Source: Planctomycetota bacterium (GTDB lineage: Bacteria; Planctomycetota; UBA11346). Taken from it: DNA of 64,000 nucleotides. The stretch is taken from positions 2,042 through 66,041 of the forward strand of contig JAFLCQ010000003.1 of assembly GCA_017302815.1 (NCBI GenBank), in the 5' to 3' direction. Below, piece after piece: positions 18,956 to 43,048 of the stretch. The position numbers and the translations under genes are program-made. Every line of letters starts with the position of its first letter. Position 1 is the first letter of the stretch. The notes under the pieces are model-generated. The model worked only from the letters and a program-made list of their open reading frames with translations, ran no database searches and had not been told where the DNA came from.

Positions 18956-19183
18956 CTATCTGACATTCATAAAACGGGATCCATACCCGACCTTGGCGTT
19001 CTTGTGCCGAATCAATCGCTGGGCCAACAGCGCTCCAGGCCAACCGCCGAGGAGTTCGAGGACATGGAGCGTGGCCTCGGGCGTCCGTGGTCGATCGAGT
19101 CGGGCAGCGCGCTTGTCGAGGTAGTAGGCCAGGAAGGCGATCAGGCTCATCAAGCCGTAGACGGCGGCGATGATCTGGATCAC
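18956..19183 (-). CDS. DUF1294-like small membrane protein
   Basis: N-terminal TM helix, then YLDKRAARLDRPRTPEATLHVLELLGGWPGALLAQRLIRHKNAK, which matches the DK..A....RIPE..L....LGG..GA......HK pattern of DUF1294. The left copy of the 15-bp direct repeat lies inside it. Confidence 0.6.
   Translation of the reverse strand: MIQIIAAVYGLMSLIAFLAYYLDKRAARLDRPRTPEATLHVLELLGGWPGALLAQRLIRHKNAKVGYGSRFMNVR
19062..19076 (+). repeat. Left copy of 15-bp direct repeat (candidate att core)
   Basis: acatggagcgtggcc, identical to 43034-43048. Flanking sequence is unrelated on both sides. Confidence 0.55.
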
Positions 19184-19386
19184 CGCCTGCCGCCGGCGGT
19201 AGTGTGCGCCCAGTCTTCAACCCAACCGCGCATCTGACCCCGAAACGTGATCGGCACATCGGTTTGAGCGACCCAGAGGCGCAGTTGTGATTCGGAGATG
19301 CCGCGAAACTGCATGGCAGCGATGAAGTCGGGATTAGCCACGGCTTTGGCCAGGAGATCCTGAGAGCGGCCTGACCAGCGCATCAT
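19180..19386 (-). CDS. Small HTH protein (IS3 OrfA / transposase-HTH-like or excisionase-like)
   Basis: MMRWSGRSQDLLAKAVANPDFIAAMQFRGISESQLRLWVAQ resembles the ..GISESTLRNWV.. HTH of IS3-family OrfA proteins. The track ORF extends to 19509 and the start is uncertain. 4-nt overlap with the DUF1294 gene. Confidence 0.35.
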   Translation of the reverse strand: MMRWSGRSQDLLAKAVANPDFIAAMQFRGISESQLRLWVAQTDVPITFRGQMRGWVEDWAHTTAGGRR

Positions 19387-19495
19387 GTTGGGGCGGGGCA
19401 CGGGTATGAGCGTAGAAGAAGGCCAGTCGCCAACAAGGTGGGGCGATTTAACCCACCGCGCCCACCTTGCGACGGGCGCGGTGCGTATTGCCATC

Positions 19496-19747
19496 CTAAC
19501 GATTTGCAAACTGTTCGACGTCGTCGATGTCCAGGGTGAAGGCGTAGGTGTTGAGTCCGGCGACGACGAAGCCCGAACTCTCTTCGAGGATCATGTAACC
19601 GCCAAACTCAGCCGCGAGTTCGGTGCGGTTCACCGACTTGCGGAGCGTGAAACCACGACGATGCAGGCGACGGCGGAGGTTGGCTTCCTTCTTAGCCCGC
19701 TCAGTGGGTGTTAGGGTGGTAAAGGTTGGGTCCATGGAAGGATCCAT
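19496..19747 (-). CDS. Hypothetical small protein
   Basis: 83-aa ORF with a basic N-terminal half (KKEANLRRRLHRRGFTLRKS) and GGYMILEESSGFVVAG..TLDIDDVEQF. No function recognised. Confidence 0.45.
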   Translation of the reverse strand: MDPSMDPTFTTLTPTERAKKEANLRRRLHRRGFTLRKSVNRTELAAEFGGYMILEESSGFVVAGLNTYAFTLDIDDVEQFANR

Positions 19748-19915
19748 ATTGGAAACCCGTCCAAGCCCTCGATTAATCGGAGACTTGGATGGGAGGTTGA
19801 AGTCCTACTAGGCATTCCCATTTGATCGGGAACGCCATGCAGGCGTTATTGGTCAGACCGTCTCAGTATCCGGAGCCGGATCGGAAAACGGCAGTTCAGT
19901 TCGGATGGAGATACC

Positions 19916-20335
19916 CTAGTTGCTTAGTTCGATCCGTTTGACGTCATTGATGTTGCCCACGATGCAGGTCTTCAACTGGTCCAGCGACCGGACGACGACG
20001 CCCGCTCGCAGCCAGATGATGCTTCCTGCGGGAATCTCAGTGCCCACCGGCAGCACGATCGCCCCACAGCCGGCGACGACTCCCGCATCCATGGCGAAGT
20101 CGTGGACCCAAACTGGTCCAATGATCGAGCAGGAGATCCACGACGCGCCAGTGATTGCCGGGGATCCAGCAGCGAGCGAAGCCTCGATGGCCTTCTGATT
20201 ATCCCAGATTTCGTCGATCGAGATGTAGAGGTCGAGATTCGACAGGAGTTGCTGGATGTGGTCATCCGCGATCGGTTCTGCGTCGTAGAGTCGGGCGACG
20301 ATCGTGTTGATCGATTTCTGTGAAGTGGAAGACAT
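19916..20335 (-). CDS. Hypothetical protein (lower-GC cargo gene)
   Basis: 139-aa ORF with protein-like composition and visibly lower GC than its surroundings. No motif recognised. Confidence 0.5.
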   Translation of the reverse strand: MSSTSQKSINTIVARLYDAEPIADDHIQQLLSNLDLYISIDEIWDNQKAIEASLAAGSPAITGASWISCSIIGPVWVHDFAMDAGVVAGCGAIVLPVGTEIPAGSIIWLRAGVVVRSLDQLKTCIVGNINDVKRIELSN

Positions 20336-20468
20336 GGCTAGATCCTGGATGCTGGTTACGCGGCAATCGCAGATGCGCGATTCGTTGGCAGTTCCGGCCT
20401 CCGAGGCGAGAACAGCTCGGCATGTATCCTGTTGAGATGGGTCAACATGCCGGTCGTCGGTGCTCGAC

Positions 20469-20502
20469 CTCCGTCATCGTCCCTATCAGGACGATGACGG
20501 AG
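20469..20502. repeat. Perfect 14-bp-stem hairpin in intergenic region
   Basis: ctccgtcatcgtcc (20469-20482) and ggacgatgacggag (20489-20502) flank the loop ctatca. It lies about 135 nt downstream of the VWA gene on the minus strand. No U-tract. Confidence 0.6.
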
Positions 20503-20636
20503 CGTGGGCCCGGTCTGTGTAGACGGCTCGGGCAATCGCAAGGCTTGTCATCATGGCCGCGCGCGGGGTTGAATCTGCCCCCAAGCGGCCTGATTTTACA
20601 CCCAGTAGGGGTGGTTTCTCGCCAGTTTTGGGCGCG

Positions 20637-21812
20637 TCAGGACTCGACCCGGAGCACCAGGCCCCATGATGCCGGCGGGCGCCCGTTCTTCGTAAGTGCC
20701 CAGATTACATCGACCTGAGGCTGTTGCCGTGGCGCGGGCCCGAGGCCGTCGGTGAAGTAGACAACGAGCTCTGTCTGTCTGTTTTCGAGAAATGCAGACT
20801 CAAGCGGCGGCCGAAAGTCTGTCCCTCCACGTCCCTCGGCCATGTCCAGGGCGCCAGAGAACGGGTACTCGCGCTGGATGGCGGCGTCGCACTCGACTAC
20901 CGTCCATTCGGCCGTGTCCGCCAACCTGCTCAGGATGGCGGAGATCGATGCCAGCGTCGCACCATCGATGCTGCCGCTGGTGTCCACCACCGCGTTGGCC
21001 TTGACCTTCCGTCGTACTGGTGCGATCGCCGGGACCACGCCCAGCAGGTGCGGCGCTCTCCTGGAAGGCCGGTCGAAGCGATATCCGCGAGTCCTGGCCC
21101 ATCCCGTCCTGGCTTCCAGATCCCGTTGCAGTTCGTGGACCGTAATGTCGCGTGTCAGCTGCGGCAGGCGTTCCATCGCTGACCCTGATCGGTTCCCGAT
21201 ACTCGGGAAACGGCGACGAAGTCGCTGCAGATCTTCGGCATCATCCTTCAGGTTGATGCCGCCAGCCAGGATTTCGTCAACCGCGCTCCTAATCTGTGCC
21301 GTGACCATGGTCTCGTTCTCACGCAGTTGGCGCCAGCCATCATGCGAGTCCAGGGTGGGATCCCCGAAACCAGCATTCGGCTGATCGGTCGTAGCCAGGA
21401 TCCCGTACCGTTCGCGGGTATCCGTATCGAGCGGGAGCTGCGGGTAGTCGCTAAGGACGATTGGCTGTCCAGGCAAGTCGTCCAACCCCTCGTTCACCGT
21501 GACCTCCTGGGCGATGCGCAGGGCGCCCCAGTCGGGCCATTCGGCCGGATCCATGAAGCAGTGGCCGTACACCACATGGCGGACCTCGTGCATCAGCACG
21601 CCCACCAACTGGTCCCGCGTGATGGCCATCACAAAAGCGGGATCGTAGAGGAGGGCGATACGATCGCCCTCCCAGCAGACGCCCATGGTGCCGATATCCG
21701 ATGCCGCAACTCGCCACTGCGCCACGATGCCACCCAGCAGCGGGTGACGATCCAGGAGGCGGCGGATCCCGACCTGCATCGCGCTGGCTGCCAGTAGTGC
21801 ATCAGTCGCCAT
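20637..21812 (-). CDS. HExxH metallopeptidase-like + VWA domain protein (DUF2201-type)
   Basis: N-terminal half carries the zincin motif LMHEVRHVVYGH. The C-terminal half carries a MIDAS-like VVDTSGSIDG. This two-domain layout and its pairing with a MoxR-type ATPase match the DUF2201_N/VWA-like family. Confidence 0.7.
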   Translation of the reverse strand: MATDALLAASAMQVGIRRLLDRHPLLGGIVAQWRVAASDIGTMGVCWEGDRIALLYDPAFVMAITRDQLVGVLMHEVRHVVYGHCFMDPAEWPDWGALRIAQEVTVNEGLDDLPGQPIVLSDYPQLPLDTDTRERYGILATTDQPNAGFGDPTLDSHDGWRQLRENETMVTAQIRSAVDEILAGGINLKDDAEDLQRLRRRFPSIGNRSGSAMERLPQLTRDITVHELQRDLEARTGWARTRGYRFDRPSRRAPHLLGVVPAIAPVRRKVKANAVVDTSGSIDGATLASISAILSRLADTAEWTVVECDAAIQREYPFSGALDMAEGRGGTDFRPPLESAFLENRQTELVVYFTDGLGPAPRQQPQVDVIWALTKNGRPPASWGLVLRVES

Positions 21813-22785
21813 CGTTGAACTCCCGGATGGCTTCAGTGAGCATTCCGCGGAACTCGGCCGGCAGATCCTTGGCTAGCAGCGGCATATGCTTGCCCCAACG
21901 CCGCCGCTGTGCCGGTGACCGCTGCTCGTTCGGATTCGCGATCGTCAGCATCACTGACTTGACCAGCTTGTTCAACTGAGCCGTGTCGTTCTTCGCTGAT
22001 ATCTTCTTGATCAGCCCCCGGTAATCGGGGTAGCCGTCGAGCAGAACCGTGGTTTCGGGCAGCAGCATGCCACCCTGGGCCAAGAAGGCGAGGAAGGCCG
22101 TCGCCATCTTGTCGCCAACCAAACCCGAGATGCAGTTCATCTGCATCTCCTTTCCTGCCTTGGCGCTCTCAAGCTCCTTCAGCACCGAGCTGACCGCCGT
22201 CCAGGCCCGGGGGTTGCTTTCGGACGCCTCGAAGACGTCTGGCATCCACTGGATGAAGCCAATCACCAGGGGATGCACGTCATGCCGCCCAGCCCAGGTC
22301 AGCCACTGCGTCTTGTCCGGCTTGACTTCGATCCGCATGAACCGGGCTTCGAGGGCGGCGTCCAGCTGTCGTGTGCCGGTGTAGCCATCGCGAGCCGGAT
22401 TAATGGCCGCCACGGGCAGCCAACCCGGCGGCAGCACATAGTCGTTCAGCCGCCGCGCCGTCAGCAGTTCCAGGGTTGGAGCCAGCATGTAGGGCTGGGC
22501 GCGGTTCAACTCCTCCAGTACCAGGAGCCCATGCCCTGTGGTGGGGAGGAAATCAGGCGGAGCGAAGCTCGTCCGCCCTGACGCGATCGTCGGGATCCCG
22601 ACCAGGTCGGCGGGTTCCATGAGCGAGAGATCGCGCATGATATAGCCGATATCGAACGCGGCCGCCGCCTGCTGGAGGATCTCCGACTTGCCAAGCCCCG
22701 TTCCACCGACGAGCAGCACTGGCTGCTTTGCCTGATAGGCGATGGAGATCATATCGATGATATCGCTGCCGATGGAGATGGCCAT
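21802..22785 (-). CDS. MoxR/AAA_5-type AAA+ ATPase
   Basis: Walker A LLVGGTGLGKSE, Walker B GLLVLEELNRA, sensor AAINP and LDAALEARF (Arg finger region). 11-nt overlap with the downstream VWA gene. Confidence 0.75.
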   Translation of the reverse strand: MAISIGSDIIDMISIAYQAKQPVLLVGGTGLGKSEILQQAAAAFDIGYIMRDLSLMEPADLVGIPTIASGRTSFAPPDFLPTTGHGLLVLEELNRAQPYMLAPTLELLTARRLNDYVLPPGWLPVAAINPARDGYTGTRQLDAALEARFMRIEVKPDKTQWLTWAGRHDVHPLVIGFIQWMPDVFEASESNPRAWTAVSSVLKELESAKAGKEMQMNCISGLVGDKMATAFLAFLAQGGMLLPETTVLLDGYPDYRGLIKKISAKNDTAQLNKLVKSVMLTIANPNEQRSPAQRRRWGKHMPLLAKDLPAEFRGMLTEAIREFNDGD

Positions 22786-22788
22786 GGC

Positions 22789-23808: not shown

Positions 23809-24017
23809 GACACCACCTCCTGGTCGATCGTCAGTGAATCCGATACGTCTTGTGTGGTGCAGATCACCCAGCGGTCATCGTGGATGATCGTCTCGACGCT
23901 CTCGGGCTGAGGATTGGCGTCATCGAGGAGGTTTGAGTCCAGGATGACGGCGTCGTTCTTCTCGTTGTTTTCAGCGACCATCGCGATCGGCATGACGCCG
24001 GTTGACGAGATCGTCAT
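23805..24017 (-). CDS. Small acidic hypothetical protein
   Basis: 70 aa from ATG 24017 (the track gives a TTG start at 24068). Asp/Glu-rich. ATGA-type 4-nt overlap with the RuvB-like gene. Confidence 0.45.
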   Translation of the reverse strand: MTISSTGVMPIAMVAENNEKNDAVILDSNLLDDANPQPESVETIIHDDRWVICTTQDVSDSLTIDQEVVS

Positions 24018-24257
24018 TTCGGCGGCACCCGGATGATCCGAGTGCCGGCAAGAATACTTGTTACGCAAGGTAACCTCTGTGCGCCATAGGCGCAGATGTA
24101 GAACTAACCGAAGACGTCAGCGACGTCTCAAGCTCGTTGCGCAGTTACCTTGTAGGTGACCTGCGGTATCGTTCGACTTCGACGGCCTCATGGCCGCATC
24201 TTCTTCTTTGGCTGCTGAAACGGCAGCCACGCGCTGGCCCAAAAGGGTGTCTTTGGA

Positions 24258-24827: not shown

Positions 24828-25982
24828 TCACGTCCGCCGCGGTCGTGGCACCGGAGGTGGCAGCAACCGCACCTGCCAAGTGTGGCCGCCAGGTTGCTTA
24901 CGCAGGGGAATCCGCATGTGCAGCTTGATCCGCGACGACCTACCTTGGGCCTCAATGGCTAGGTCGTCGCGTTCAATCGCGTTGAGGATGCCCAGCACCA
25001 CATCCTCAGAGATCTCGTCACGATGCAGGACATGGCGTTGACGCCGGCGATCCGTTCCTGACCCGATCTTCCGGTTGATGAGGTCTACACCACGTCGCTT
25101 GTGCAGCAGGCGGCCAACGTCGCTGATGCCGAACGGCTTCCCTGCCAGATCCTCGCGGAGTATGATCTCCACGGCCGTTCGCAGATACCCCTGCATGCCA
25201 CCAAGGATCTCCGTTGCCCGTGCCGCACGCACACACGCCTGGAGGACAGGCACGATCGCCGTGCCCGTCACCAGGGGTTCATTGACCTGCGGTTCGGTCA
25301 GCAACTGATGGACCTTGGACTGGAGAAGTAGCCGCCGTTGCGGATCCCGACTGGCCTTGCGCCACCTAATCACGCCGTCCGCCAACTCATGCAGGAATGG
25401 CTGCCATACGGCCAAGTCCTCGGAAGCCGGTTGAACATCCCGTCGCCTATCCCTCGGCTTGGGTGTAGGTAGAGACGATCGCAGGACCTCGATCAGGCCA
25501 TGATCCGCAGGCCATATATTGAGGGCTCGCGCCAGGGCCTCGATCTGGTGCGGCTCGAACTGGTCCAGTAGGGCACCGCGACGATCACCGCAGAACCGCC
25601 ACCGCGCCACGCGCACGCCACGCGGTACGGGCAGTTGGCAGTCCGACTCGATCAACCGATCCAGCAGGGCACCCTCGAGTCGGTCCCACCAGGCGCCTGT
25701 GCACGCGGAAGCCGGAACCGACTTCCAATCGACGCCCGAGGACGCCGACAGCATGACGCTTTCCCAATACGCCTGGGGTGGGTCGATACCTTTCGCGATC
25801 CAGTCCGGGGACACCTGCAACACACCGGCAACGGTTGGTAGGCGAGCACTTGGAATCCCACCGGCGTCCCAATCGTACAAGGTGTTCGTCGAGACGCCCA
25901 GTGCCTTCGCCAGGTCGGCACGCGACCACCCCAAGTGGGTAAGCATGACCCCAATGCGTTCCATGTCCCTGACGACTGGCAT
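24828..25982 (-). CDS. XRE-family HTH regulator with large uncharacterised C-terminal domain
   Basis: N-terminal MLTHLGWSRADLAKALGVSTNTLYDWDAGG matches the Cro/C1-type HTH. About 300 further aa have no recognised motif. Divergent from the polymerase gene. Confidence 0.65.
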   Translation of the reverse strand: MPVVRDMERIGVMLTHLGWSRADLAKALGVSTNTLYDWDAGGIPSARLPTVAGVLQVSPDWIAKGIDPPQAYWESVMLSASSGVDWKSVPASACTGAWWDRLEGALLDRLIESDCQLPVPRGVRVARWRFCGDRRGALLDQFEPHQIEALARALNIWPADHGLIEVLRSSLPTPKPRDRRRDVQPASEDLAVWQPFLHELADGVIRWRKASRDPQRRLLLQSKVHQLLTEPQVNEPLVTGTAIVPVLQACVRAARATEILGGMQGYLRTAVEIILREDLAGKPFGISDVGRLLHKRRGVDLINRKIGSGTDRRRQRHVLHRDEISEDVVLGILNAIERDDLAIEAQGRSSRIKLHMRIPLRKQPGGHTWQVRLLPPPVPRPRRT

Positions 25983-26084
25983 GGCATCAGGCTGTCGCGT
26001 GCTCTAGGGGGATCAACTCAGGACGAGGCCGTGTTCCGTAAGTCTTTTATAGACAAATATATAAAATCTTGATCGGCGTAAACA

Positions 26085-26146
26085 CCAACCCAGGAGCGGC
26101 ATCTTCTCGAACCTCAGGGCGGCGCATAAGCCAACCCAGGAGCGGC
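26085..26146. promoter_or_regulatory. Two identical 16-bp direct repeats in the divergent XRE/polymerase control region
   Basis: ccaacccaggagcggc occurs at 26085-26100 and 26131-26146, 46 bp start to start. An AT-rich stretch ttttatagacaaatatataaaatcttgat lies at about 26045-26073, and tgatcggcgt also occurs twice (26070, 26162). Confidence 0.5.
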
Positions 26147-26260
26147 GTGATCGCGACGGCCTGATCGGCGTCGCGGTGATCCAAGCAGAACGCGCAAGCG
26201 GCGACGACCGGGGTCCCTGGCGCCGACATCCGTCGGCGTCGCTACCCAACGGGTGTCGCC

Positions 26261-31434: not shown

Positions 31435-32311
31435 GTAACCGAATAATACAAAAGTGGCTGTACTTGCCTGCTTGTCTATTTCAGAGGTTGTTTTCAAGCG
31501 AATCATGTCGATGCGACAATCGTCCATAGTATAAAACCACCATCGTTTTTGTAATCATGCATAGACCTTAGGCCGCATGCAATCGAGCAGCGTGAAGTTG
31601 AATGCGCAAATAGTCGTTCGAACCACAGTTCGACATGAAGCGTCGCGAACGGCGAACGTCCAAAAGATCAATACACACCAGCGTCATGCAGCGTGTTACG
31701 GTTCGACTCCATGTGCTGATTAGTTCGTTGGTATCAGCTAAATCGCCGAGTCGCTGGCATCAAGTAAATCCATTCAATGCGAGACCGTTCATTGGGTAAA
31801 TCGACCAAATAATATGCGATAAGAATCATAGTGGCCACATAGCCACAACTATGTCGCAGCCATCGGCGATTCATCCCGCCGTTGGCGGGATCGTCGTAGC
31901 TCGGCTCCACCACATCCTTGGAGAACTAACTATGTCCCATCTCTTCGCGTTTTCGCACCCGCGTGAACACCAGTTAAGCGGCCTTGACCTGTCTCCGTCA
32001 GAGTCGTCAGGGGCCATCGAGGCCTCCTTCTGGGAACGCCGCCGCCACCGCCTGCCCCAGGACTGGCCATCGGTAGTCTCCCGCTTTCTCGATCGGCCGT
32101 CCTCGCCCCAGCACACCCCTCGTCCATCGCCATCTGCTAGTCGGCCAGCGCCGCGTGGTCCGAGCGCCGCCAGCGCGGGCTGAAATCCGGTCACATGCGT
32201 ACCGCAAAATATCGTCGTTTGCGGACATCCCAGTTGGCCGCTGCCAACTCAGATGGCAGCAGCCATCATCTGGCACAACCGCATACCGATCCGCATATTG
32301 GTCAGGTAACC

Positions 32312-32653: not shown

Positions 32654-33943
32654 ATGCTGAAATCTCACATATTCACGCGCCTCGGGTCGCTTGCTGCGAT
32701 CCTCGTCCTGGCCGCTGGCATCAACGCCGCCGATGCCCCAGCAGGGGCCAGCGACGCCACGACCCTGAGCGCGGCTGACATGGCGCTCATCGACAAGAAT
32801 ATGAACGCCGAAGACAAGGCAGCCTTCAAGAAGGCCATGCTTCAGTACTATCAGGGTCTCAACGGTAAAGCTCCGGATCAAATGCAGGGTTTGCAGGTCG
32901 CATACAAGGCGGCGAAACAGAGTCAGGAGGCACGTGGTGTCGGAAAGGCACCCAAGGAGTTGCAGATCGGCCAAATCCGCACGGTAGTCTCCTGTGGTGC
33001 GAGCTCCGACCAACTCAGCAAACCCCAGGTCCCCAAGTACCTGGCCGTGAGCCCTTCCAATGCGCTGCACTGGATTGTTGGACGACAGGTTGTCCGACTA
33101 AATGCTGATGGCTCACAGACCGTAGTTGCTGGCATTTCTGAAGACGGGCCAGTCGGGGATGGTGGCCCCGCCGTCAATGCTCGACTGACCATGCCATCCG
33201 CCATCGCATTTGCCCCGAATGGCGATCTCTACATCGCTGACCAAGGCGCTCATTGCATTCGTAAAGTGCAGGCCTCGGACGGGGTCATCAGCACATGCGC
33301 CGGTGATGGAACCATTGGCGGCGCCGGAAATCATCCGGATGACGGTGGTCCGGCCATCAAAGCAAAGCTGGGAGGACCTTCGGACCTCCGCGTCGACACC
33401 AAAGGAAATATCTACGTTCTGCACCAGTCTTTGATTCGCAAGATCGACGCTGCAACTGGGAACATCAGCACGGTGATGGAAGGCGCATCCAGCAAGTTCG
33501 CTCTTGATGTAAAAGCTGACATCCTGTCGCCCGGAAATCGCATCTCCCGCTACATCATAACTTCTCAGAAAGATGAGACCATTGCCGGTGCTCGCGTCGA
33601 TGGATACGGCGGCGATGGGAAAGCCGGAGACCAAGTCAGATTCAAGGAAAGCGACAGTGTCGTCGTCGACGCGAATGGTGACATCTACGTTGCCGATACG
33701 GGCAATAACCGTATTCGGAAGATCTCAGGCACAGACGGCATAGTTTCCACTGTTGTTGGCTCAACGACGCCGGTCGGCAATGAGGCCGTTGGAGGGAAAC
33801 CTCCCAAGGGTTACAGCGGAGATGGCGGACCAGCGAACAGCGCATTGCTGGATTCGCCAGAATCTGTCGCCCTCGACGGAATCGGAAATCTGTATTTCAT
33901 CGATCGAGGGAACAAGGTCATTCGCATGGTGAAGTTGCACTAA
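32654..33943 (+). CDS. Secreted NHL-repeat beta-propeller protein
   Basis: Signal peptide MLKSHIFTRLGSLAAILVLAAGINAADA. Repeated units PSAIAFAPNGDLYIADQGAHCIRKV, GNIYVLHQSLIRKID, DANGDIYVADTGNNRIRKI and GIGNLYFIDRGNKVIRMV. Lower GC than the flanks. Confidence 0.7.
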   Translation: MLKSHIFTRLGSLAAILVLAAGINAADAPAGASDATTLSAADMALIDKNMNAEDKAAFKKAMLQYYQGLNGKAPDQMQGLQVAYKAAKQSQEARGVGKAPKELQIGQIRTVVSCGASSDQLSKPQVPKYLAVSPSNALHWIVGRQVVRLNADGSQTVVAGISEDGPVGDGGPAVNARLTMPSAIAFAPNGDLYIADQGAHCIRKVQASDGVISTCAGDGTIGGAGNHPDDGGPAIKAKLGGPSDLRVDTKGNIYVLHQSLIRKIDAATGNISTVMEGASSKFALDVKADILSPGNRISRYIITSQKDETIAGARVDGYGGDGKAGDQVRFKESDSVVVDANGDIYVADTGNNRIRKISGTDGIVSTVVGSTTPVGNEAVGGKPPKGYSGDGGPANSALLDSPESVALDGIGNLYFIDRGNKVIRMVKLH

Positions 33944-34135: not shown

Positions 34136-34594
34136 ATGGCCATCACCATCCAGGCCCAACTCGCGAAGAAGGTGCCGATTCCCGGCGCCGACTACTCGTC
34201 CCAGCAGGCCTCCATTACCATCTCGGCCGAGGTAACCGACCTCACCCAGGTCGTCACCGAGGCCCAACGCATCTACGCCATCGCTGAGCAGGCGGTCGAT
34301 GCACAACTGAACCGGCAAACCGCCGCTGTCCCCCAGTCTGCTCGATCGGTCGCCGCACCACCCCAGGCACAACCGCGACAGGGCATTTCCCAGCCCCATC
34401 GGCCCAATAGTCAGCGCCGCCAGCCGGCCGCCGTGACCGATTCCCAACTCCGGTTCCTCAAGCGTCTGATCGACCAGACCAAAGTGGCAGTGCCGGCGAT
34501 CCTCGATCAGTACCAGGTCGGCAGTCTCGACCAGCTTTCATGCCGGGATGCGGCCGGGCTGATTGACGAACTGAAGGGCCAGGTGGCGGCGTGA
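34136..34594 (+). CDS. Hypothetical protein (Gln/Pro-rich linker, helical C-terminal module)
   Basis: GGAG lies 8 nt upstream of ATG 34136. 152 aa. C-terminal SQLRFLKRLIDQ...SLDQLSCRDAAGLIDELK. 4-nt overlap with the next gene. Confidence 0.5.
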   Translation: MAITIQAQLAKKVPIPGADYSSQQASITISAEVTDLTQVVTEAQRIYAIAEQAVDAQLNRQTAAVPQSARSVAAPPQAQPRQGISQPHRPNSQRRQPAAVTDSQLRFLKRLIDQTKVAVPAILDQYQVGSLDQLSCRDAAGLIDELKGQVAA

Positions 34595-35361
34595 TTGCAG
34601 CCACCGTTGTGACCCCATCTACTCCTCCTTCAGCGGCACAGCGATCACCTGATCACCTCAGCCACAGCCAGGTCCAGGAGTTCACCCTGTGTCCTCGGCG
34701 ATGGCGATTCAACAAGATCGAAAACGCGCCGCGGGAGCAGGTCGGCTCAGCCCTGGTCTTCGGAGCGGCGGTACACGACACCATCGCCGCCGTGAACGAG
34801 GCTGCGCTGCATGGAGAGCGCATCGACGCGCCAGCGCATTTCCTCACCGCCTGGAAGCGGGCGGTGGCTGACGCCAATGCACCGATCCACTTCGGCAAGG
34901 ACGATGGTGACGACCTCATCGCCAAGGGCCGGAGTCTCGTCGGCATCTACACGCCACCGCCAGGGATCATTGGCGTCGAGCAACCGTTCGAGGTCGAGTT
35001 GGCGCCGGATCTTCCAATCGTCCAAGGCCGCATCGACCTGGTGCGTGCCGAGGGCGAAACCCTAATCCTGGCTGACATCAAGACTGCCGCTGCCCGCACG
35101 CTGACCGACACCCATGCGGTCGAGGCACAGTTGGCACTTTACGATCTCGCGTATCCCGCCTCCCGGCACGAGGTCATCGTCGCTGCCAAACTCAAAAACC
35201 CCGTGATCACGGTCCAGCCGATCACGCCCTGGCCGATCGCGACGCTCGTGCGCCATTACCGGGAAGTCCATCACGGGATGGCCAGCGGTGTCCGCTACGG
35301 GGTGCGGGGTTGGCAGTGCGAGGGTTGTTCGTTCGCAAGCCGTTGCAGAAAGGAAGGATAG
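34591..35361 (+). CDS. Cas4/RecB-like PD-(D/E)xK exonuclease with 4-Cys cluster
   Basis: N-terminal Cys (EFTLCPRRW), nuclease motifs GRIDLV ... LILADIKT ... EAQLALYDLA (QxxxY), and C-terminal CEGCSFASRC (C-x2-C-x5-C). Confidence 0.7.
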   Translation: MIAATVVTPSTPPSAAQRSPDHLSHSQVQEFTLCPRRWRFNKIENAPREQVGSALVFGAAVHDTIAAVNEAALHGERIDAPAHFLTAWKRAVADANAPIHFGKDDGDDLIAKGRSLVGIYTPPPGIIGVEQPFEVELAPDLPIVQGRIDLVRAEGETLILADIKTAAARTLTDTHAVEAQLALYDLAYPASRHEVIVAAKLKNPVITVQPITPWPIATLVRHYREVHHGMASGVRYGVRGWQCEGCSFASRCRKEG

Positions 35362-35364: not shown

Positions 35365-35856
35365 ATGTCAGATCGTGCCTACGCCCGCTTCACCGTTCCC
35401 ATGTCGGTCCTGGCCGACCCCGCCAAGGCCGAGGCCATTCGATCCGCCTTCGGCTTCTCCACAGCCGACTTCCAGTCCACGCTGCTGTCAGAGCCGTTGA
35501 CCCAAGAGGCCAGTGGTCACGAGAGCTTCACCGTGCGCCTCGTCGACAGGCGGCCTTGCCTCGTCTATGAGGAGGAGGACTGCAACTACGGCGGCGCCGA
35601 CATCGAGGACGCCCTTTGTGCGGCCCAGGTGCCCTTCATCCAGGTGAATGCAGCCGGTGACGAGTACGGGCCGAGTTCGACCGTCTATGACGGTGAGACA
35701 TCCGAGATTGTCCGCCTCGACCACAACCTGGAACCCATCGTCGGCATCGGCGTCGTCGACGGCCGTGCCACCGTCGATGCCCAGGAAGTCACCGACTACG
35801 AGCGCTACCTCCGCCTGCGGCGAAGTGTGCTGCTCTACCCCGCCGTAGCGGCTTGA
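35365..35856 (+). CDS. Hypothetical protein
   Basis: 163-aa ORF beginning 4 nt after the previous stop. Acidic, with no recognised motif. Confidence 0.45.
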   Translation: MSDRAYARFTVPMSVLADPAKAEAIRSAFGFSTADFQSTLLSEPLTQEASGHESFTVRLVDRRPCLVYEEEDCNYGGADIEDALCAAQVPFIQVNAAGDEYGPSSTVYDGETSEIVRLDHNLEPIVGIGVVDGRATVDAQEVTDYERYLRLRRSVLLYPAVAA

Positions 35857-36090: not shown

Positions 36091-36966
36091 TCACCTGTCG
36101 TCCAAGCCCGCTACGGCCGCTCTCGGTTGGTGGGTCATCCGGCGCACATCGAAGACCAGACGTGAGCCGTCAATACGCCCGTCCGCCGATCGGAGGAGAA
36201 ACAGGTCGACGTTGCGTTGGTCGTCACTAGCATCGTCCTCATCCAACCCAAGACCGAGGACGGCGTCAGCCCCGTCGAGGTCTTCATCCTCGGCGTACCC
36301 GGCGGTGGCGACGATGGGGATGCCAAGCTCCCGGGCGATGCTCGCCAGGGATCGCACCATCGTCTGCACGGAACTCGTCGTGACTCCAAGGGTTTCCGCC
36401 CCGAGATAGTCGACGATCACCACCGTCGATCGGACCGATGCATGCTGGTGAATCAGCGTTGTCAGCTGGTCGGCGGTTGCATCCGTAGGTGCCATCAGGA
36501 CGAGCGGCCAGGACGCGATGGCTGCCTGGGCTTGATCCACGGCGGCCAGCTGCGCCGGACTGCAGGTGCCTGATTCCAAGAAGTCGTAGGGCACGCCGGT
36601 CATCGCCGTGATCAGCTTCCACGTCAGCATCGGCACCGACAGGTCCGTGCTGATGTAGAGAACCTGGACAGGGTCGGCTGGCCGGGCGACGAGATCGCGA
36701 GCCAAACCCAGCGCGAGCGAGGACTTCCCCGATCCAGGCTGGCATACGCAGACGTGCATCTGTCCGGGCTGCAGCAGCGGCACCACGTCACGCCAGCCGA
36801 TCGCCTGCACCGGGATGGGACGGTTGTGATCTGCCACGCCGCCACCGTAGCACGCCATCCCCATGCACCAGTCCCATGGCAGCAGCGCCGTTCGACGTCG
36901 CCTGCCATGGATTTCCATCACCAAACCCCGGCCATCCGGCCACTGAAAGGAGCCCCATATGTCCAA
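36091..36966 (-). CDS. DnaB C-terminal-domain-like / RecA-fold ATPase
   Basis: Walker A QPGSGKSSLALGLA, Walker B VVIVDYLGAE, and LASIARELGIPIVATAGY as in the DnaB_C LK.LAKEL.VPV.ALSQL pattern. There is no DnaB N-terminal domain. The true start may be an internal Met (36918 or 36864). It is the only minus-strand gene in this module. Confidence 0.6.
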   Translation of the reverse strand: MDIWGSFQWPDGRGLVMEIHGRRRRTALLPWDWCMGMACYGGGVADHNRPIPVQAIGWRDVVPLLQPGQMHVCVCQPGSGKSSLALGLARDLVARPADPVQVLYISTDLSVPMLTWKLITAMTGVPYDFLESGTCSPAQLAAVDQAQAAIASWPLVLMAPTDATADQLTTLIHQHASVRSTVVIVDYLGAETLGVTTSSVQTMVRSLASIARELGIPIVATAGYAEDEDLDGADAVLGLGLDEDDASDDQRNVDLFLLRSADGRIDGSRLVFDVRRMTHQPRAAVAGLDDR

Positions 36967-37165: not shown

Positions 37166-37167
37166 AC

Positions 37168-38777: not shown

Positions 38778-38783
38778 GCGGCC

Positions 38784-38972
38784 ATGCAGATCGACCGCCC
38801 TCGCACTGCCTGGCCGTGGGCTCGCGCCCTGCCAGCGTCCCTGACGCATGAGCAGGTGCGGGACCTCCACGCCTTGTCGAAAATCAGCGGCCGGACCATC
38901 CGCCGCATTGTCACCACCGCCGTCACCGCCGCCCTGGACGAGGCCCGCGAGGCCGAATCCAACCCGGCCTGA
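38784..38972 (+). CDS. Small putative DNA-binding protein (paralogue of 36959-37165)
   Basis: 62 aa sharing the W-P-W...A-L...L-H...I-(T/R)-R pattern with the 36959 gene. Confidence 0.45.
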   Translation: MQIDRPRTAWPWARALPASLTHEQVRDLHALSKISGRTIRRIVTTAVTAALDEAREAESNPA

Positions 38973-38989
38973 ACCATCGAGATCGCTCC

Positions 38990-39703
38990 ATGAACACCGT
39001 CTTCCATATTCCCCGCATCACAGCCGATCGCCTCGCACGCCTGCCCTTGGCCTGTGCCGACGAATCCGGTCCTCTCGGCCACATCGGCGTCCGCGTCACG
39101 CCGACCGCCGTGCGCTTCGCTGCCACCAACGGCCGCATCCTCGCCAGCCTCGTCGTGCCCATCGACGTCCTCACCGGCGATGCCGGCGACGTCATTTTCG
39201 ACGCGGCTCAGTTCGCCACCGCCCTCAAGGCTGCGGCAAAGGCGACTGGCGGGCGCATCCAGATCGAGATCGGGCCGAAGGAGGCCCGGCTGACCAACGG
39301 CACGGCATCGGCCATCGTCCGCCGCGTCGACGGCACCTTCCCGCGCGTCGAGCACGTCTGGTCGCGCACCGCCGGGCGCCAGTGGGTGCCGACGATCAGC
39401 AGTCTCGATCCCGTGCTGTTAGCCACCGCCCAGAAGATCAGCGGGCACAAGAATCCGCTGCTGTTCTCATCCCCCGTCGATCCCGCCGCCCGGCTGGATC
39501 GCCTCTGGGCCGTGCCGGGCGCCACCGCCGGCGAGAGCCTCGACCTCGCCCAGGCCCGGCAGGCCGTGATCGCCCCGGCGTACTGGGCCGACCACGAACT
39601 CGCCATCCTGGTCATGCCCGTCACCAGGACCGCTGAGCAGCGCCAACTCGATCTCCAGGTCCACGCCGTGAGCCTGCCAGAGTCGGCCGCCGTCGCGGCC
39701 TGA
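38990..39703 (+). CDS. Shortened DNA polymerase III beta-clamp (DnaN)-like protein
   Basis: VRFAATNGRILA resembles DnaN LRTVATDGHRLA. VDGTFPRVEHVW resembles VDGRFPDYRRVLP. C-terminal AILVMPVTR resembles YVVMPMRL. It is 237 aa versus about 366 for canonical beta, so roughly one domain is missing. Confidence 0.55.
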   Translation: MNTVFHIPRITADRLARLPLACADESGPLGHIGVRVTPTAVRFAATNGRILASLVVPIDVLTGDAGDVIFDAAQFATALKAAAKATGGRIQIEIGPKEARLTNGTASAIVRRVDGTFPRVEHVWSRTAGRQWVPTISSLDPVLLATAQKISGHKNPLLFSSPVDPAARLDRLWAVPGATAGESLDLAQARQAVIAPAYWADHELAILVMPVTRTAEQRQLDLQVHAVSLPESAAVAA

Positions 39704-39766
39704 CCGCCACCCCGCCATCACCCCCATGCACCCAGGCCGCCACCGCTGCCTGGGCAGGAGTCGTCC

Positions 39767-40915
39767 ATGGACCTGTTCTCCGACATCCTCCCCCCACTGC
39801 CGGCGCCGGTGCCCATCAGCACCGTCGTCGATGCCGTGGCCCCGACCCTCGTCCGCACCCCCAGCCTTCACCCCGAGAGCCCGAAGCCCAGCCGCGCCCC
39901 GCATACCGCCAGGCTCGGCCTGCCGCCGCCGCGCCAGAACCCCTGGCAGCGCATCGGCAGGGCGCTCTCCCCGGCCGCAGCCACTGATCCCGCCGTCGCC
40001 ATCCGCGAGGCGGGGCTCGACTGGACTGTTAGCCGCGTCGATCTGCGCACCGCAGACAGCCTCGACCCGGTGCCGGACTTCGCCGCGATACGGAAATCCA
40101 ATGACGGCCGCATTCTCGGCGTCGTCGGCCCCGACTACGAGCCGTTCCAGAACGCCGGCATGTTTCAAGTCTTCACCGATCTCGCCCAGGTCAGCCGCGA
40201 CGATGGAGGCATGCCCTTCACCATCGAGACGGCCGGGGCATTCAATGGAGGGAAGGTCGTCTGGGCGCTCGCGCACCTCCCCGAACTTGGGATCAGGATC
40301 AGCGAAGACGTGTCGAATACCTACCTTCTGGTCAGCAATGGCCACACCGGCAATAAGACGTTAGTCATTTGCCCTACGACGATTAGAGTAATCTGCCGCA
40401 ATACCCTGGCGATGGCGGAGGCGCAGGCCCGTCACAACCGCAGCAAGCCCGGCCTCGCCGGCGGCTTCACGATCAAGCACTTGCCCAGCATCCACGAGAG
40501 CGTCAACCAGGCGAAGAATGCCTTCGCCACCGTGATCCGAGACCACGCCGTCACCAAGGCCGCCTGGAACCGGCTCGCCGATGTACCGCTGAACCGGAAG
40601 CTGGAGCACGAGTTCATGGCCCAGGTCTTCGGTCGCCCCGGCCCTGACGAATCCGATCGCGCTCGTGCGCTACGAAAGTCCCGCGAAGAACGCATCGCTG
40701 CGATCCTCGCGTCGCCGACCTCGCAGGTGAAAGGGACAAAGGACAGCCTGCTGTCGGCCCTCTTCGCCTGCACAGAATGGGCTGACCATGACCGCATGAC
40801 CCGGACTACTGATGGCGGCAATGCGGACGAGGCGCGCCTCTTCAGCGCTGCTTTTGGCAGCGCTGCTGCGTTGAAGGAGCGGGCATGGACGGCCGCGCTG
40901 GATCTGGCAGCATAA
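39767..40915 (+). CDS. DUF932-family (phage/plasmid-like) protein
   Basis: AGLDWTVSRVDL ... AAIRKSNDGRILGVVGPDYEPFQNAGMFQVF matches the DUF932 signature common in integrative elements. A Pro-rich N-terminal extension precedes it. Confidence 0.65.
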   Translation: MDLFSDILPPLPAPVPISTVVDAVAPTLVRTPSLHPESPKPSRAPHTARLGLPPPRQNPWQRIGRALSPAAATDPAVAIREAGLDWTVSRVDLRTADSLDPVPDFAAIRKSNDGRILGVVGPDYEPFQNAGMFQVFTDLAQVSRDDGGMPFTIETAGAFNGGKVVWALAHLPELGIRISEDVSNTYLLVSNGHTGNKTLVICPTTIRVICRNTLAMAEAQARHNRSKPGLAGGFTIKHLPSIHESVNQAKNAFATVIRDHAVTKAAWNRLADVPLNRKLEHEFMAQVFGRPGPDESDRARALRKSREERIAAILASPTSQVKGTKDSLLSALFACTEWADHDRMTRTTDGGNADEARLFSAAFGSAAALKERAWTAALDLAA

Positions 40916-41355
40916 ACCATCTGCTGCCATCTGCCGCCTTGTGAGGCCATGGCCATCGGGTATCATGTGCCCAGTTCCGTGGTGATCGGCACCCGGGGCA
41001 GTGGAACTGGATCTGGCTCGTCACGACGGGCCTTTTGCCGGCAGCCAATGCCAACGACCGATCGGTTCGACGACGAGCGACCACGCGAACCACGTGTCGA
41101 GAACCTCGGCGCCGCTCCCTTCGAGGATCGGCTTCCGGGCGTAGGTCGACGATCCCGACTAGCCTCCTTCGGCGCCCGCCGGTGGAACGTCTCGCTGCTC
41201 ACCATGCGTGGGCACGGTGCACGCAGCCGCCGTTCATCGCCACAGTCCCGATCGACCTACCCATGTCGCAGGACTCCACGTCCCCCCGCCACCGTCGTGC
41301 TGCCGCCCATCAGCCGCAGCCGACCCATGGCGACTCCTCCATCCCTTCACCCAAC

Positions 41356-41622
41356 ATGCCCCACTCCACGACCATGGTCGCGGGGCTGCGCCGTCTTCTC
41401 AGCACCGAGGAGGCGAGCATCTACCTCGACTGTCATGTGCGGACCATTCCCCGCCTCATGGAAAGGGAGGTGAATCCGCTCAAGGCATACCGTATTGGCC
41501 GCATCCTGAAGTTCCGCCAGGAAGATCTCGATGCCATACTTGAGCCGGTGAACACCGACTCGGCCGCGTCGACCTCCCTGGAGGACTTCGTCGACCAGCA
41601 GTTCCAGACGGGGGCGCCGTGA
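41356..41622 (+). CDS. Excisionase-family HTH DNA-binding protein
   Basis: LLSTEEASIYLDCHVRTIPRLMEREVNPLKAYRIGRILKFRQEDLDAIL fits the excisionase/HTH_17 pattern. 4-nt overlap with the integrase gene. An alternative start lies at 41374. Confidence 0.65.
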   Translation: MPHSTTMVAGLRRLLSTEEASIYLDCHVRTIPRLMEREVNPLKAYRIGRILKFRQEDLDAILEPVNTDSAASTSLEDFVDQQFQTGAP

Positions 41623-42968
41623 ACGTCGCCCTCGCGCTGAACCCCCCGGCGGCGTCCGCCGCCGGGGCCAATCCCATCATCATCTTCGAGAGGAAGCCTA
41701 TGGCGGGGCACACCACGATGCCGCCTCGCAAACAGACCACGCCCTACGGCGACGTCACCCTGACCTCGCGCTGGATGCGTGATCGCTATCACCTCGTCGC
41801 CACCGGGCCGATCTCAGCCCTGCGGTGGATGTTCCCGAAGCACGATGGCTCCATGGAGGCCGTGTCGCCGCATGCGTGTCGCCACGTCTTCAGCCCGGCG
41901 CCCGCACCCATCACGGTCGAGCGCGAACTGAGAAGGGTCTGCGCGGTCTGGCAGGCCAGGTGGGATGAGCGCGGCCAGGACACCCAGGACGGCCTTGCCG
42001 CAAGTTCGCCTTCGCAGTCGTCCTCCATCCAGAACCTCGGCCAACTATTCGACCACCTGTACGCCGACCGCATGACCAAGGTCGCCAAGTCGACGACCGA
42101 CCGGGACCGCTATCGGCTGCTTCTGTGGCGCACCGAACTCGGCAACGACCGCCTGCTCGCGAACCTGCGGCCGGATGACATTGCCGATGCCCTGGCCCGG
42201 ATCGGCAAGCGCACCAGCCCGTCCACTGCCAACACCAGCCTGGGCGTCCTGAAGACCTACCTGACCTGGGCGGCGAACATGGGGCTACTGCGTGACCTGA
42301 GTCACAAGACGGTCCGTCGGCTCAAGGAGCCGGCCTCGTTACGCCACCGCCGCGAATGGTGGACAACCGCCCAGTTCGAGCAGGCGCTCGCCATCGCTCA
42401 ACAGGACCCGCACCAGCCGACGGCTACGCTGCTGGTGGCATGCGGCTGTCTGCTCGGGCTGCGACCCGAGGAAATCATCATGCAGCGCTGGGAGGACCTG
42501 GATCTCGATGCCAAGGACCCCCAGACGGGCGAACCGCGGCCGGTCTGCCATGTCGTTCCGCACTCCGGCTGGACGCCGAAGGATGGCGAGGCGCGGGACA
42601 TCCCTATCTCGGCCAGGCTCCTGGCCATTCTGACGCCGCTTCGGCGGAAGGCTGGCTTCCTGCTGATGAATGAGCCGCACCGGAAAGGACGGCCTCGTGG
42701 TGGGACGGGCTGGAAGTACCGCTACAACCCGACCAAGGTCTGGCGGCGGATGATGGAGGCGTTCACGAAGGCCGGCGGGAAGGTCATTACCATGTACGGC
42801 ATGCGGCACACCTTCGCCTCGAACCTGCTCATCAACAACGTCTCGGACGTGAAGGTCGCTCGCTGGTTGGGGCATGGTGACACCCGCATGCTGCACCGTC
42901 ACTACGGCCACCTGCTGAGCTATGACGATGACATCAACGCCACAGCGAACCCCAAGGAGCAGGGGTGA
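41619..42968 (+). CDS. Tyrosine recombinase / phage-type integrase
   Basis: C-terminal catalytic region: GLRPEEI (Arg I), YGMRHTFASNLL (box II) and LGHGDTRMLHRHYGHL (nucleophile Tyr). Plus an N-terminal SAM-like core-binding region. The start codon is uncertain (GTG 41619 or Met near 41701). Confidence 0.85.
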   Translation: MNVALALNPPAASAAGANPIIIFERKPMAGHTTMPPRKQTTPYGDVTLTSRWMRDRYHLVATGPISALRWMFPKHDGSMEAVSPHACRHVFSPAPAPITVERELRRVCAVWQARWDERGQDTQDGLAASSPSQSSSIQNLGQLFDHLYADRMTKVAKSTTDRDRYRLLLWRTELGNDRLLANLRPDDIADALARIGKRTSPSTANTSLGVLKTYLTWAANMGLLRDLSHKTVRRLKEPASLRHRREWWTTAQFEQALAIAQQDPHQPTATLLVACGCLLGLRPEEIIMQRWEDLDLDAKDPQTGEPRPVCHVVPHSGWTPKDGEARDIPISARLLAILTPLRRKAGFLLMNEPHRKGRPRGGTGWKYRYNPTKVWRRMMEAFTKAGGKVITMYGMRHTFASNLLINNVSDVKVARWLGHGDTRMLHRHYGHLLSYDDDINATANPKEQG

Positions 42969-42983
42969 GCAAGACCGCGCTGA

Positions 42984-43010
42984 CCGGCGGAGGCTTCACG
43001 CCTCCGCCGG
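42984..43010 (+). terminator. GC-rich hairpin just after the integrase stop
   Basis: ccggcggaggc (42984-42994) and gcctccgccgg (43000-43010) flank the loop ttcac. No immediate T-tract. Confidence 0.4.
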
Positions 43011-43033
43011 CAGGGTCGGCCGTGATCTTCTTT

Positions 43034-43048
43034 ACATGGAGCGTGGCC
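43034..43048 (+). repeat. Right copy of 15-bp direct repeat (candidate att core)
   Basis: acatggagcgtggcc, identical to 19062-19076. It lies between the integrase hairpin and the tRNA terminator. Confidence 0.55.

Follow-up and report, generated by a model that had tools for sequence, protein, structure and literature searches.

Tycheposons are elements that integrate at tRNA genes by means of a tyrosine recombinase and carry polymerase, primase, helicase and ligase genes but no capsid or conjugation genes; they have been reported in vesicles as well as in capsids (bioRxiv 10.1101/2020.12.28.424599). Pipolins, which carry a family-B DNA polymerase (PolB), have been reported as defence islands (PMC11551731), and experiments on GP55, a single protein from Lactococcus phage 1706, have demonstrated helicase, primase, polymerase and exonuclease reactions as well as de novo DNA synthesis (PMC12205980, PMC4889955, PMC7544198). 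Here, we describe an element of about 24 kb in a Planctomycetota metagenome-assembled genome (MAG), contained in a 64,000-nt stretch of DNA (contig JAFLCQ010000003.1, assembly GCA_017302815.1; hereafter the window, to which coordinates refer). We read it, with moderate confidence, as an integrated, replication-competent element at the 3′ side of a tRNA-Gly(GCC) gene, of the kind represented by tycheposons and by satellites resembling phage-inducible chromosomal islands (PICIs), and built on a family backbone in which an XRE-family regulator and a large fusion replicase fill a variable slot.

An integrated element beside a tRNA-Gly gene

The element extends over approximately 18.95–43.16 kb of the window and ends on the right with the excisionase gene, the tyrosine integrase gene, a terminator hairpin and the tRNA-Gly(GCC) gene, in that order; the tRNA gene lies directly downstream of hemB (43283–44311). 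A first-pass annotation, made from the DNA letters, had placed the integrase and excisionase genes about 190 bp from the tRNA gene. The distance between the end of the integrase gene and the 3′ end of the tRNA is 189 bp; the tRNA was called by both ARAGORN and Rfam and was the sole match in the Rfam scan. The patchy composition noted earlier was likewise borne out, with a GC content of 0.55–0.66 between 19 and 43 kb and of about 0.69 outside (window GC, about 69%). The listed genes, namely those for RuvB-like, DnaB-C-like, ligase, beta-clamp-like, Cas4-like, DUF932 and XRE proteins, were recovered by searches of Pfam, NCBIfam, PHROGs and the PDB and by AlphaFold2 (AF2) modelling with Foldseek. 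The element is also present in two other sequencing runs, at 99.9–100% identity.

A conserved backbone around a variable replicase slot

Relatives of the element were viewed over ±10 kb around the marker gene, which encodes the clamp-like protein. Four relatives share one gene order: small open reading frames (ORFs), a PD-(D/E)XK nuclease, a 163-aa ORF, in part a ligase, a 62-aa ORF, the clamp-like protein, a DUF932 protein, an HTH_17 (helix-turn-helix) protein and a tyrosine integrase. The backbone proteins are 46–84% identical at the amino acid level in the contigs designated L108, L109/L110, P0049 and P0105. L109 is situated at a tRNA-Gly(GCC) gene and L108 at a tRNA-Leu(GAG) gene; in both, as in the window, the 3′ end of the tRNA faces the integrase.

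What the relatives carry in the replicase slot differs from contig to contig. A DUF3987 helicase is found there in L108, a DUF5906 protein with an AEP-TOTE protein (AEP, archaeo-eukaryotic primase) in the P0049 contig, and a Toprim primase with an ATPase in L109/L110. L162/L163 have three function-unassigned proteins in the slot and, at their far left end, DnaB with an IstB/DnaC-like loader. In the window element the slot holds the XRE regulator and the 1,698-aa fusion. Judged by this comparison of gene content, the polymerase fusion fills the variable slot as a cassette that can be exchanged. The clamp-like protein, the nuclease, the ligase and the DUF932 protein are kept in relatives without a polymerase, and they are therefore not simply accessories of the fusion PolB. 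The first-pass annotation had made a private replisome the organising logic of the element, an idea that this comparison does not support; its description of that replisome as near-complete was also overstated, as single-stranded DNA-binding protein, clamp loader, topoisomerase and RNase H were not recognised in the element. The window element and its relatives belong to a widespread family of tRNA-targeting integrative elements, of which we found no description in the literature.

As claimed earlier, virion and conjugation genes were not detected: profile searches of the element ORFs gave no Pfam or PHROGs match to terminase, portal, capsid, tail, relaxase or type IV secretion system proteins, and every ORF of at least 300 aa was otherwise assigned. 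The backbone is likewise devoid of virion genes in five independently examined relatives. A concatenated query made of the right-hand module matched annotated plasmids and phages through DUF932 only, and a local tblastn search of all element proteins against phages with a related PolB returned the polymerase only.

The locus might instead be a decayed prophage, that is, a temperate phage integrated at tRNA-Gly from which the structural and lysis genes disappeared while the replication, regulation and integration modules stayed. We judge this to be quite unlikely. In keeping with it, the PolB is of phage type and matches more than 1,100 phage records, the DUF932 and DUF2201 proteins have phage homologues, no left attachment site (attL) was found, the left-end ORF is truncated, and a PolB-primase-helicase relative from the same polymerase clade (P0012, a PolB-PriCT-VirE fusion) is part of a prophage that also encodes a terminase and a portal. 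Set against these points, the virion-less backbone recurs in five independent relatives and its marker gene in 108 clusters, and an identical loss in all of them is unlikely; the clamp-like family was found in none of the IMG/VR contigs scanned; and the L108 element stops at host genes directly after integrase and tRNA. The 13–16 kb between the left-most element gene seen and the integrase in L109 and L108 is, moreover, a satellite-like and not a phage-like length.

A fusion of polymerase, probable primase and helicase regions

The fusion replicase is divided into three regions: PolB with its 3′–5′ exonuclease at residues ~1–640, a PrimPol-like region at ~665–900 and a superfamily 2 (SF2) helicase at ~960–1698. 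The first-pass annotation had proposed this composition, and the three parts have fared differently. The PolB part is firmly an ordinary phage-type PolB by its alignments, with 28–36% identity (E down to 4e-104) to stand-alone phage DNA polymerases of 640–680 aa, among them those of the Rhizobium Kleczkowskavirus, Xanthomonas Langgrundblatt and Rhodobacter RcTitan types; in NCBIfam and the PDB it matches Pol II and Pol alpha. The window PolB and bona fide phage enzymes do not differ in Exo I (DxE), Exo II, Exo III, motif A, motif B (KxxxNSxFG), motif C (NTD) or KxY. With all of these catalytic motifs kept, the fusion PolB is likely to be active and to proofread.

The helicase assignment is moderately supported: a Walker A motif and DExD are present, ResIII was matched in all six full-length homologues (best E=2e-5) and DEAD in four of the six. 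The PrimPol assignment holds at the level of the family and not for the window copy by itself (E=0.068). The region possesses invariant DxD, WHG and GFE motifs, and Pfam Prim-Pol (PF09250), the sole family to recur in it, was matched in 11 of 17 diverse relatives (best E=1.5e-5), which makes a PrimPol probable. Foldseek with the AlphaFold model of residues 640–1698, which is a poor one, gave no significant match, the pRN1 prim-pol domain being fourth in the list, and a profile search of the PrimPol-helicase part against the PDB gave spurious repeat-protein matches only. Many relatives of the PrimPol region carry a zinc-finger-like motif, CPFxxxH...CxHxSC, after the core; it is absent from the window protein and its closest relatives.

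A word-indexed search found six full-length homologues of the fusion only. An exhaustive HMMER search of 1.84 billion representatives yielded 242 relatives of its C-terminal two-thirds, and at least 32 of the top 150 have the three-region architecture, most of them 1.55–1.72 kaa in length. On this distribution, PolB-PrimPol-SF2-helicase is a real, recurrent and uncharacterised family of predicted replicases.

A divergent XRE-like gene encoding 345–450 aa lies upstream of every full-length replicase homologue examined (L001, L002 and L104/L105). The pair stands on its own in these loci, which share almost none of the other genes of the window: in L001 it has SbcCD-like and methyltransferase genes nearby and in L105 RHS proteins, and in L002 it is adjacent to a DruA-domain gene and transposases. 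L103, a 9.5-kb contig, encodes a distant replicase homologue (27% identity) with a 339-aa gene upstream and an integrase downstream. In L086 (IMGVR_UViG_3300028635_000002), a 12,147-bp circular IMG/VR contig with a 29-nt terminal overlap and a GC content of 33%, a replicase homologue is the largest gene and spans the junction; a large-terminase-like protein, an ERCC4 nuclease, an MT-A70 methylase and an HTH_17 protein are also encoded, and no capsid gene. L103 and L086 are thus further instances of the cassette away from the backbone family, and L086 may be a satellite-like mini-replicon.

In the window, the XRE gene and the replicase diverge from a control region that is a candidate for operators, promoters or an origin. 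Past the replicase stop codon, a third half-site of the inverted repeat that follows it is found at 31449–31459, and this region lies in the element's lowest-GC kilobase.

The leftward operon and a possible role in conflict

From the control region the leftward operon runs XRE, two small ORFs, RuvB-like ATPase, MoxR, von Willebrand factor A (VWA)/metallopeptidase protein and 139-aa ORF. The RuvB-like ATPase scored 167 bits in NCBIfam against an equivalog cut-off of 282 and matched RuvB in the PDB over its full length (E=6e-28); close homologues are rare. Over 4.09 kb, this left arm (RuvB-like, MoxR, VWA and 139-aa ORF) is 87% identical in nucleotides to that of L162/L163. The DUF2201 protein had no relatives in the viral-contig scan.

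One of the sequences that carry the element, L003 (Logan SRR10663363_38801), is otherwise 99.9% identical and departs from the window left of 21645, within the DUF2201 gene. Its first 28 nt (against window 21617–21644) are divergent and match none of the sequences fetched; a structural variant would account for this, as would an artefact of the assembly.

MoxR-VWA pairs are components of NTP-dependent conflict systems. Such a pair is present here, with a weak bpMoxR match, and the locus could accordingly be viewed as a defence or cargo island in which the XRE-fusion pair and the RuvB-like/MoxR/VWA operon are conflict systems, the fusion acting against invading DNA or in repair. The XRE-fusion pair does occur as a two-gene unit that stands alone in different surroundings (L002, L001 and L105), and pipolins, the other PolB elements, have been reported as defence islands (PMC11551731). 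We nonetheless consider a defence island unlikely: PADLOC detected no known defence system in the element, the proofreading-polymerase motifs of the fusion are intact and identical to those of phage replicases, and the fusion sits in the slot where relatives hold canonical primase-helicases of mobile genetic elements. Homologues of the fusion are, in addition, the main gene of the 12-kb circular contig L086 and, together with the integrase in L103, a minimal element.

A two-domain clamp-like protein marks the family

The clamp-like protein is the hallmark of the family. Its AF2 model is of good quality, with a predicted local distance difference test (pLDDT) score of 87 and a predicted template modelling (TM) score, pTM, of 0.81, and all of the top 50 Foldseek matches were bacterial sliding clamps or complexes containing one (E ~5e-9, probability 1.0). 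The protein covers two of the three domains of DnaN, with TM(query) of 0.5–0.57; DnaN possesses three clamp-fold domains in ~366 aa and forms a dimeric ring, whereas the element protein has two domains in 237 aa. Homologues fall into 108 clusters at 46–86% identity, all of ~235 aa, and the few with a named source come from Planctomycetes MAGs. No relative was found among 2.9 million IMG/VR contigs.

Among the remaining genes of the rightward module, the ligase ORF is taken as 430 aa, following the gene call in L003, and not as the 561-aa maximal ORF. A Kelch propeller occupies the analogous place in L109 to that of the NHL-repeat propeller in the window. The features of the element are collected in Table 1.

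Table 1. Features of the element and its right-hand border, with positions in the window, strand and supporting evidence
Feature	Position	Strand	Evidence and remarks
DUF1294-like ORF, 75 aa	18956-19183	-	DUF1294 motif in translation; holds left 15-mer (19062-19076)
109-aa ORF	19180-19509	-	79% aa identity to L002 4010-4237; no Pfam/PHROG match; cassette-linked in L002 too
139-aa ORF, last gene of leftward operon	19916-20335	-	89% aa identity to L162
DUF2201 protein, metallopeptidase-like N-terminal and VWA-like domains	20637-21812	-	Pfam PF09967 7.5e-16, PF13203; PHROG 1314 6e-28; 93% aa identity to L162
MoxR-type AAA_5 ATPase	21802-22785	-	Pfam PF07728 (weak bpMoxR match); 87% aa identity to L162
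RuvB-like AAA+ ATPase with RuvB C-terminal winged helix	22789-23808	-	Pfam RuvB_N and RuvB_C
XRE-family regulator, 384 aa (N-terminal HTH and ~300 aa of other sequence)	24828-25982	-	Pfam HTH_3/HTH_23; PHROG repressors; divergent from replicase
Divergent control region	25983-26260	.	AT-rich stretch 26040-26075; two CCAACCCAGGAGCGGC copies (26085, 26131)
Fusion replicase, 1,698 aa	26261-31357	+	PolB with 3′–5′ exonuclease, AEP/PrimPol-like region, SF2 (DEAD/ResIII) helicase
Inverted repeat, 30-nt arms (90% complementary), 9-nt loop	31374-31442		Just after replicase stop; candidate terminator or origin
Small backbone ORF, 110 aa	31851-32183	+	Homologues in L108, L162, L001
Small backbone ORF, 135 aa	32195-32602	+	Homologues in L108, L162, L001
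NHL-repeat beta-propeller, signal-peptide-like N-terminus (cargo)	32654-33943	+	Pfam TEN_NHL 1e-24, NHL
Backbone ORF before nuclease, 152-178 aa	34058-34594	+	37-49% aa identity to L108, L109
PD-(D/E)XK (Cas4/RecB-like) nuclease	34591-35361	+	Pfam PDDEXK_1 1e-20; PADLOC Cas4 5e-8; 64% aa identity to L108, L109
163-aa backbone ORF	35365-35856	+	36% aa identity to L108; 163-164-aa gene likewise placed in three relatives
DnaB C-terminal (RecA-fold) ATPase without DnaB N-terminal domain	36091-36966	-	Pfam DnaB_C 3.6e-16; PDB DnaB 3e-7
ATP-dependent DNA ligase, LigD-ligase-domain-like, 430 aa	37485-38777	+	Pfam PF01068; NCBIfam NHEJ ligase 1e-18; 70% aa identity to L108
62-aa backbone ORF, always precedes clamp-like gene	38784-38972	+	84% aa identity to L108; same place in relatives
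Two-domain beta-sliding-clamp-fold protein, 237 aa	38990-39703	+	PHROG 947 3e-6
DUF932/TIGR03299 phage-plasmid protein	39767-40915	+	Pfam 2e-33; NCBIfam 173 bits, above cut-off; 62-72% aa identity to L108, L109
Excisionase/AlpA-like HTH_17 protein, 82 aa	41374-41622	+	Pfam HTH_17 on longer ORF; gene call in L084
Tyrosine integrase, 449 aa	41619-42968	+	Pfam Phage_integrase 1.5e-12
Right copy of 15-mer ACATGGAGCGTGGCC	43034-43048	+	Within integrase-proximal arm of element
Two tandem copies of ACTGGGAGCAG between integrase and hairpin	43062-43084	+	Candidate arm-type integrase sites
Intrinsic-terminator hairpin	43125-43152	-	12-bp stem, loop GUGAAAGC region, T-run; abuts tRNA 3′ end
tRNA-Gly(GCC)	43157-43233	-	ARAGORN; Rfam 68.6 bits; integration target

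An element-borne hairpin at the right end

The hairpin that abuts the tRNA was positive in a terminator scan, folds with -27.4 kcal/mol and is unique as a motif in the window. In its shared form, CCCC(N)GGCTTTCACC(N)GGGG with a T-run behind it on the tRNA strand, the hairpin directly adjoins the 3′ end of tRNA-Gly in the window, of tRNA-Gly in L109 and of tRNA-Leu in L108, and the changes in the stem are compensatory. Because it accompanies two different tRNA species, the hairpin is element-borne; the element therefore reaches at least 43156 and has its right end at the tRNA. By this comparison, the hairpin of the element would replace the tRNA's own downstream sequence, and the crossover presumably took place at or inside the 3′ end of tRNA-Gly. 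The tandem repeats between integrase and hairpin resemble arm-type integrase sites, a role that they may fill; in L108 and L109 this place is taken by short tandem repeats of other sequence. With the integrase of L109, at tRNA-Gly(GCC), that of the window shares 55% identity, versus 28% with that of L108, at tRNA-Leu, and integrase similarity thus appears to track the target tRNA.

The left end and the 15-mer

At the left, the GC content shifts at 18.85–19.0 kb. The DUF1294 ORF is 85% identical to L002 at the amino acid level and 86% at the nucleotide level, and homology stops at 18984; the ORF is truncated at its 3′ end and lacks the C-terminal 20 residues of the L002 homologue. From the GC shift and the end of L002 homology, the left limit of the element is probably at ~18.95–18.99 kb. 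Window positions 18984–19418 are 83–86% identical in nucleotides to L002 2599–2781 and 4017–4233, while the replicase genes are only 66% identical, which suggests recent exchange of the DUF1294/109-aa end piece. In L002, the DUF1294 and 109-aa ORFs are separated by inserted RNase T and nitroreductase genes.

The first-pass annotation had taken an identical 15-mer, ACATGGAGCGTGGCC, to bracket the element. Exact copies are indeed present at 19062 and 43034; as the element boundary they are not supported, the left copy lying in an ORF and the right copy inside the element arm. Roughly 40 independent exact direct repeats of at least 15 nt are held by the window by chance, and without a positional prior the pair is therefore unremarkable; under such a prior (500 bp after the integrase against 11.5 kb around the GC shift) it ranks first, with E=0.004. 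As an attachment (att) core it was rejected as unlikely on three grounds. The sequence around the left copy, inside the DUF1294 ORF, is contiguous in the L002 homologue; joining the flanks into a reconstructed attB restores no DUF1294 N-terminus; and the right copy lies 109 bp within sequence that comparison assigns to the element. The 15-mer is thus probably not the att core.

The relative L109 is also bracketed by an exact 15-nt direct repeat (L109 454–468 and 14317–14331). Its right copy falls at a GC jump but 690 bp past tRNA-Gly, and the tRNA may lie within a composite island there.

Several features of the flanking DNA were recorded. Directly left of the element, at 18455–18886 (+), is a 143-aa secreted-looking protein with three tandem 42-aa (126-nt) repeats, KPWYIGPKGGDxRKGxxxSPxELWVAxHG. 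The host flank at 10495–18050 (-) resembles an RND-type efflux operon, with proteins of 1257 aa and 442 aa followed by an OEP outer-membrane factor, and also holds three 35-nt repeats at 15787–15938 and a small ORF that encodes a CCKGC motif. Far outside the element, at 2292–2437, ~37 nt are repeated exactly and in direct orientation, with a spacing of 123 nt.

A model for the element

In the model that we propose, the XRE protein would hold the element silent; on induction, integrase and excisionase would excise a circle, which the fusion enzyme would unwind, prime and copy with proofreading, while the clamp-like protein, the ligase and the nuclease would aid synthesis and the processing of nicks and flaps. 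Given the lack of virion and conjugation genes, the element would need a helper phage, or some other passive means, for movement from cell to cell, as PICI-like satellites and tycheposons do; this route of transfer is purely conjectural.

Several observations weigh against this view of the locus as a replication-competent integrated element. No attL was recognised, and neither a partial tRNA-Gly (window 1–42000) nor a second set of arm repeats (window) was found; the present copy may therefore no longer excise and, with its left-end ORF truncated, may be a fixed, decaying island. The first-pass annotation had suggested a search for empty sites at hemB/tRNA-Gly in related genomes. None was found: the exact hemB protein is not on record, and the closest hemB in a GTDB scan is 74% identical, with no adjacent tRNA. 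Neither a circular form nor a copy-number excess of the element is in evidence. PHROG and Pfam searches, which have low sensitivity for fast-evolving small proteins, detected no terS, major capsid protein (MCP)-like or sid/cpm/ppi gene, and in the contigs of relatives, seen over ±10 kb, virion genes could lie farther out. For the fusion itself, the Prim-Pol score of the window protein is sub-threshold, and the AlphaFold model of the C-terminal 1,059 aa has a pLDDT of 44.

Helper dependence is the point at which a further explanation departs from our model, namely that the element is an autonomous integrative plasmid, or episome, which excises, is maintained or amplified by its own replicase, clamp, ligase and nuclease, and passes between cells in vesicles, through transformation or by cell fusion; it corresponds to the distinct self-replicating lineage suggested in the first-pass annotation. 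In its favour, the set of replication genes is unusually complete, PHROGs and Pfam reveal no packaging gene, the clamp-like family does not occur in viral contig collections, and tycheposons offer a precedent for carriage in vesicles as well as capsids (bioRxiv 10.1101/2020.12.28.424599). Yet no partition, plasmid-maintenance or transfer genes were recognised in the element, an extrachromosomal form is without evidence, a related replicase occurs alongside a large terminase in L086, and the integrase-excisionase-primase/helicase layout of the relatives is the classical satellite layout. We hold an episome of this kind to be distinctly improbable.

A bolder proposal gives the leading part to the backbone: the nuclease, the mini-clamp and the DUF932 protein would define a new, phylum-wide Planctomycetota class, in which a PCNA-like trimeric clamp recruits host polymerases or the element's own fusion, and which would be a helper-independent self-synthesising episome distinct from pipolins, casposons, satellites and tycheposons. 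This is rather doubtful in our estimation. The clamp-like protein is kept even in polymerase-less members, and the partner that it tethers bears on how small elements hijack host replication.

Under our preferred reading, that of a tycheposon- or PICI-like integrated element, the locus opens a view of the mobile elements of Planctomycetota, which are almost uncharted. The family comprises more than 100 marker clusters and combines a backbone, a plug-in replicase slot and a tRNA terminator, features that could guide the annotation of islands of this type throughout the phylum.

Comparison with known systems

The first-pass annotation inferred that the gene set matched no known kind of layout. 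This is not supported, as tycheposons and PICI-like satellites are tRNA-integrating tyrosine-recombinase elements with such genes. The element shares with the tycheposons of Prochlorococcus and with PICI-like satellites a tyrosine recombinase and an excisionase, insertion at a tRNA, modular replication genes, regulators and cargo, the lack of capsid and conjugation machinery, and a size of tens of kilobases; the likeness to tycheposons is one of gene content and layout by description. It differs in its phylum, in a backbone of two-domain clamp-fold protein, DUF932 protein and PD-(D/E)XK nuclease, and in that the copy described here has neither a distal partial tRNA nor a terS or MCP-like gene. 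What is new is the backbone (two-domain clamp-fold, DUF932, PD-(D/E)XK nuclease, ligase and element-borne tRNA terminator), the phylum and the replicase cassette.

Pipolins (PMC5695915, PMC11551731) are likewise integrative, often at tRNA genes, with a tyrosine recombinase, a family-B polymerase and no virion genes. The earlier distinction from them probably holds: by best matches, the PolB of the element is nearest to primer-dependent, clamp-associated phage polymerases, which are encoded beside sliding clamps and primases, and it is fused to a PrimPol of its own. Pipolins also carry flanking direct repeats; in the window the integrase and the tRNA are present, and no convincing direct repeat pair was found. 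Nor is the element a casposon, as had been recognised; casposons use a Cas1-family integrase (casposase), whereas the recombinase here is a tyrosine integrase, and no Pfam match to Cas1 was obtained among the ~30 candidate ORFs of the element.

Siphophages of the Kleczkowskavirus, RcTitan and Langgrundblatt types encode a PolB of the same family, at 28–32% identity, beside which they encode a sliding clamp, a primase, an SF2 helicase and an exonuclease of RecB type; in function, this set equals that of the element. In these phages the replication functions are separate genes, the clamp has three domains and ~325–338 aa, and virion genes are present; the accessory proteins of the element show no BLAST-level similarity to theirs.

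The closest counterpart of the fusion is GP55/HelPrimPolB, in which a helicase, an AEP-type primase, a family-B polymerase and a 3′–5′ exonuclease are also joined in one chain. The order is helicase-primase-PolB there and PolB-PrimPol-helicase in the element; the helicase is SF3 and N-terminal in the former, SF2 (DEAD/ResIII) and C-terminal in the latter. The PolB of HelPrimPolB belongs to an EpsilonN-like clade, and that of the element to a small clamp-associated phage group (Rhizobium, Xanthomonas and Rhodobacter phages). GP55 is the biochemically characterised protein of a virulent phage, whereas the element fusion is known from its sequence and resides in an integrative element. The PolB-PrimPol-SF2-helicase fusion would thus be a second, independently assembled version of the GP55 enzyme and a candidate compact replicase for biochemistry and biotechnology.

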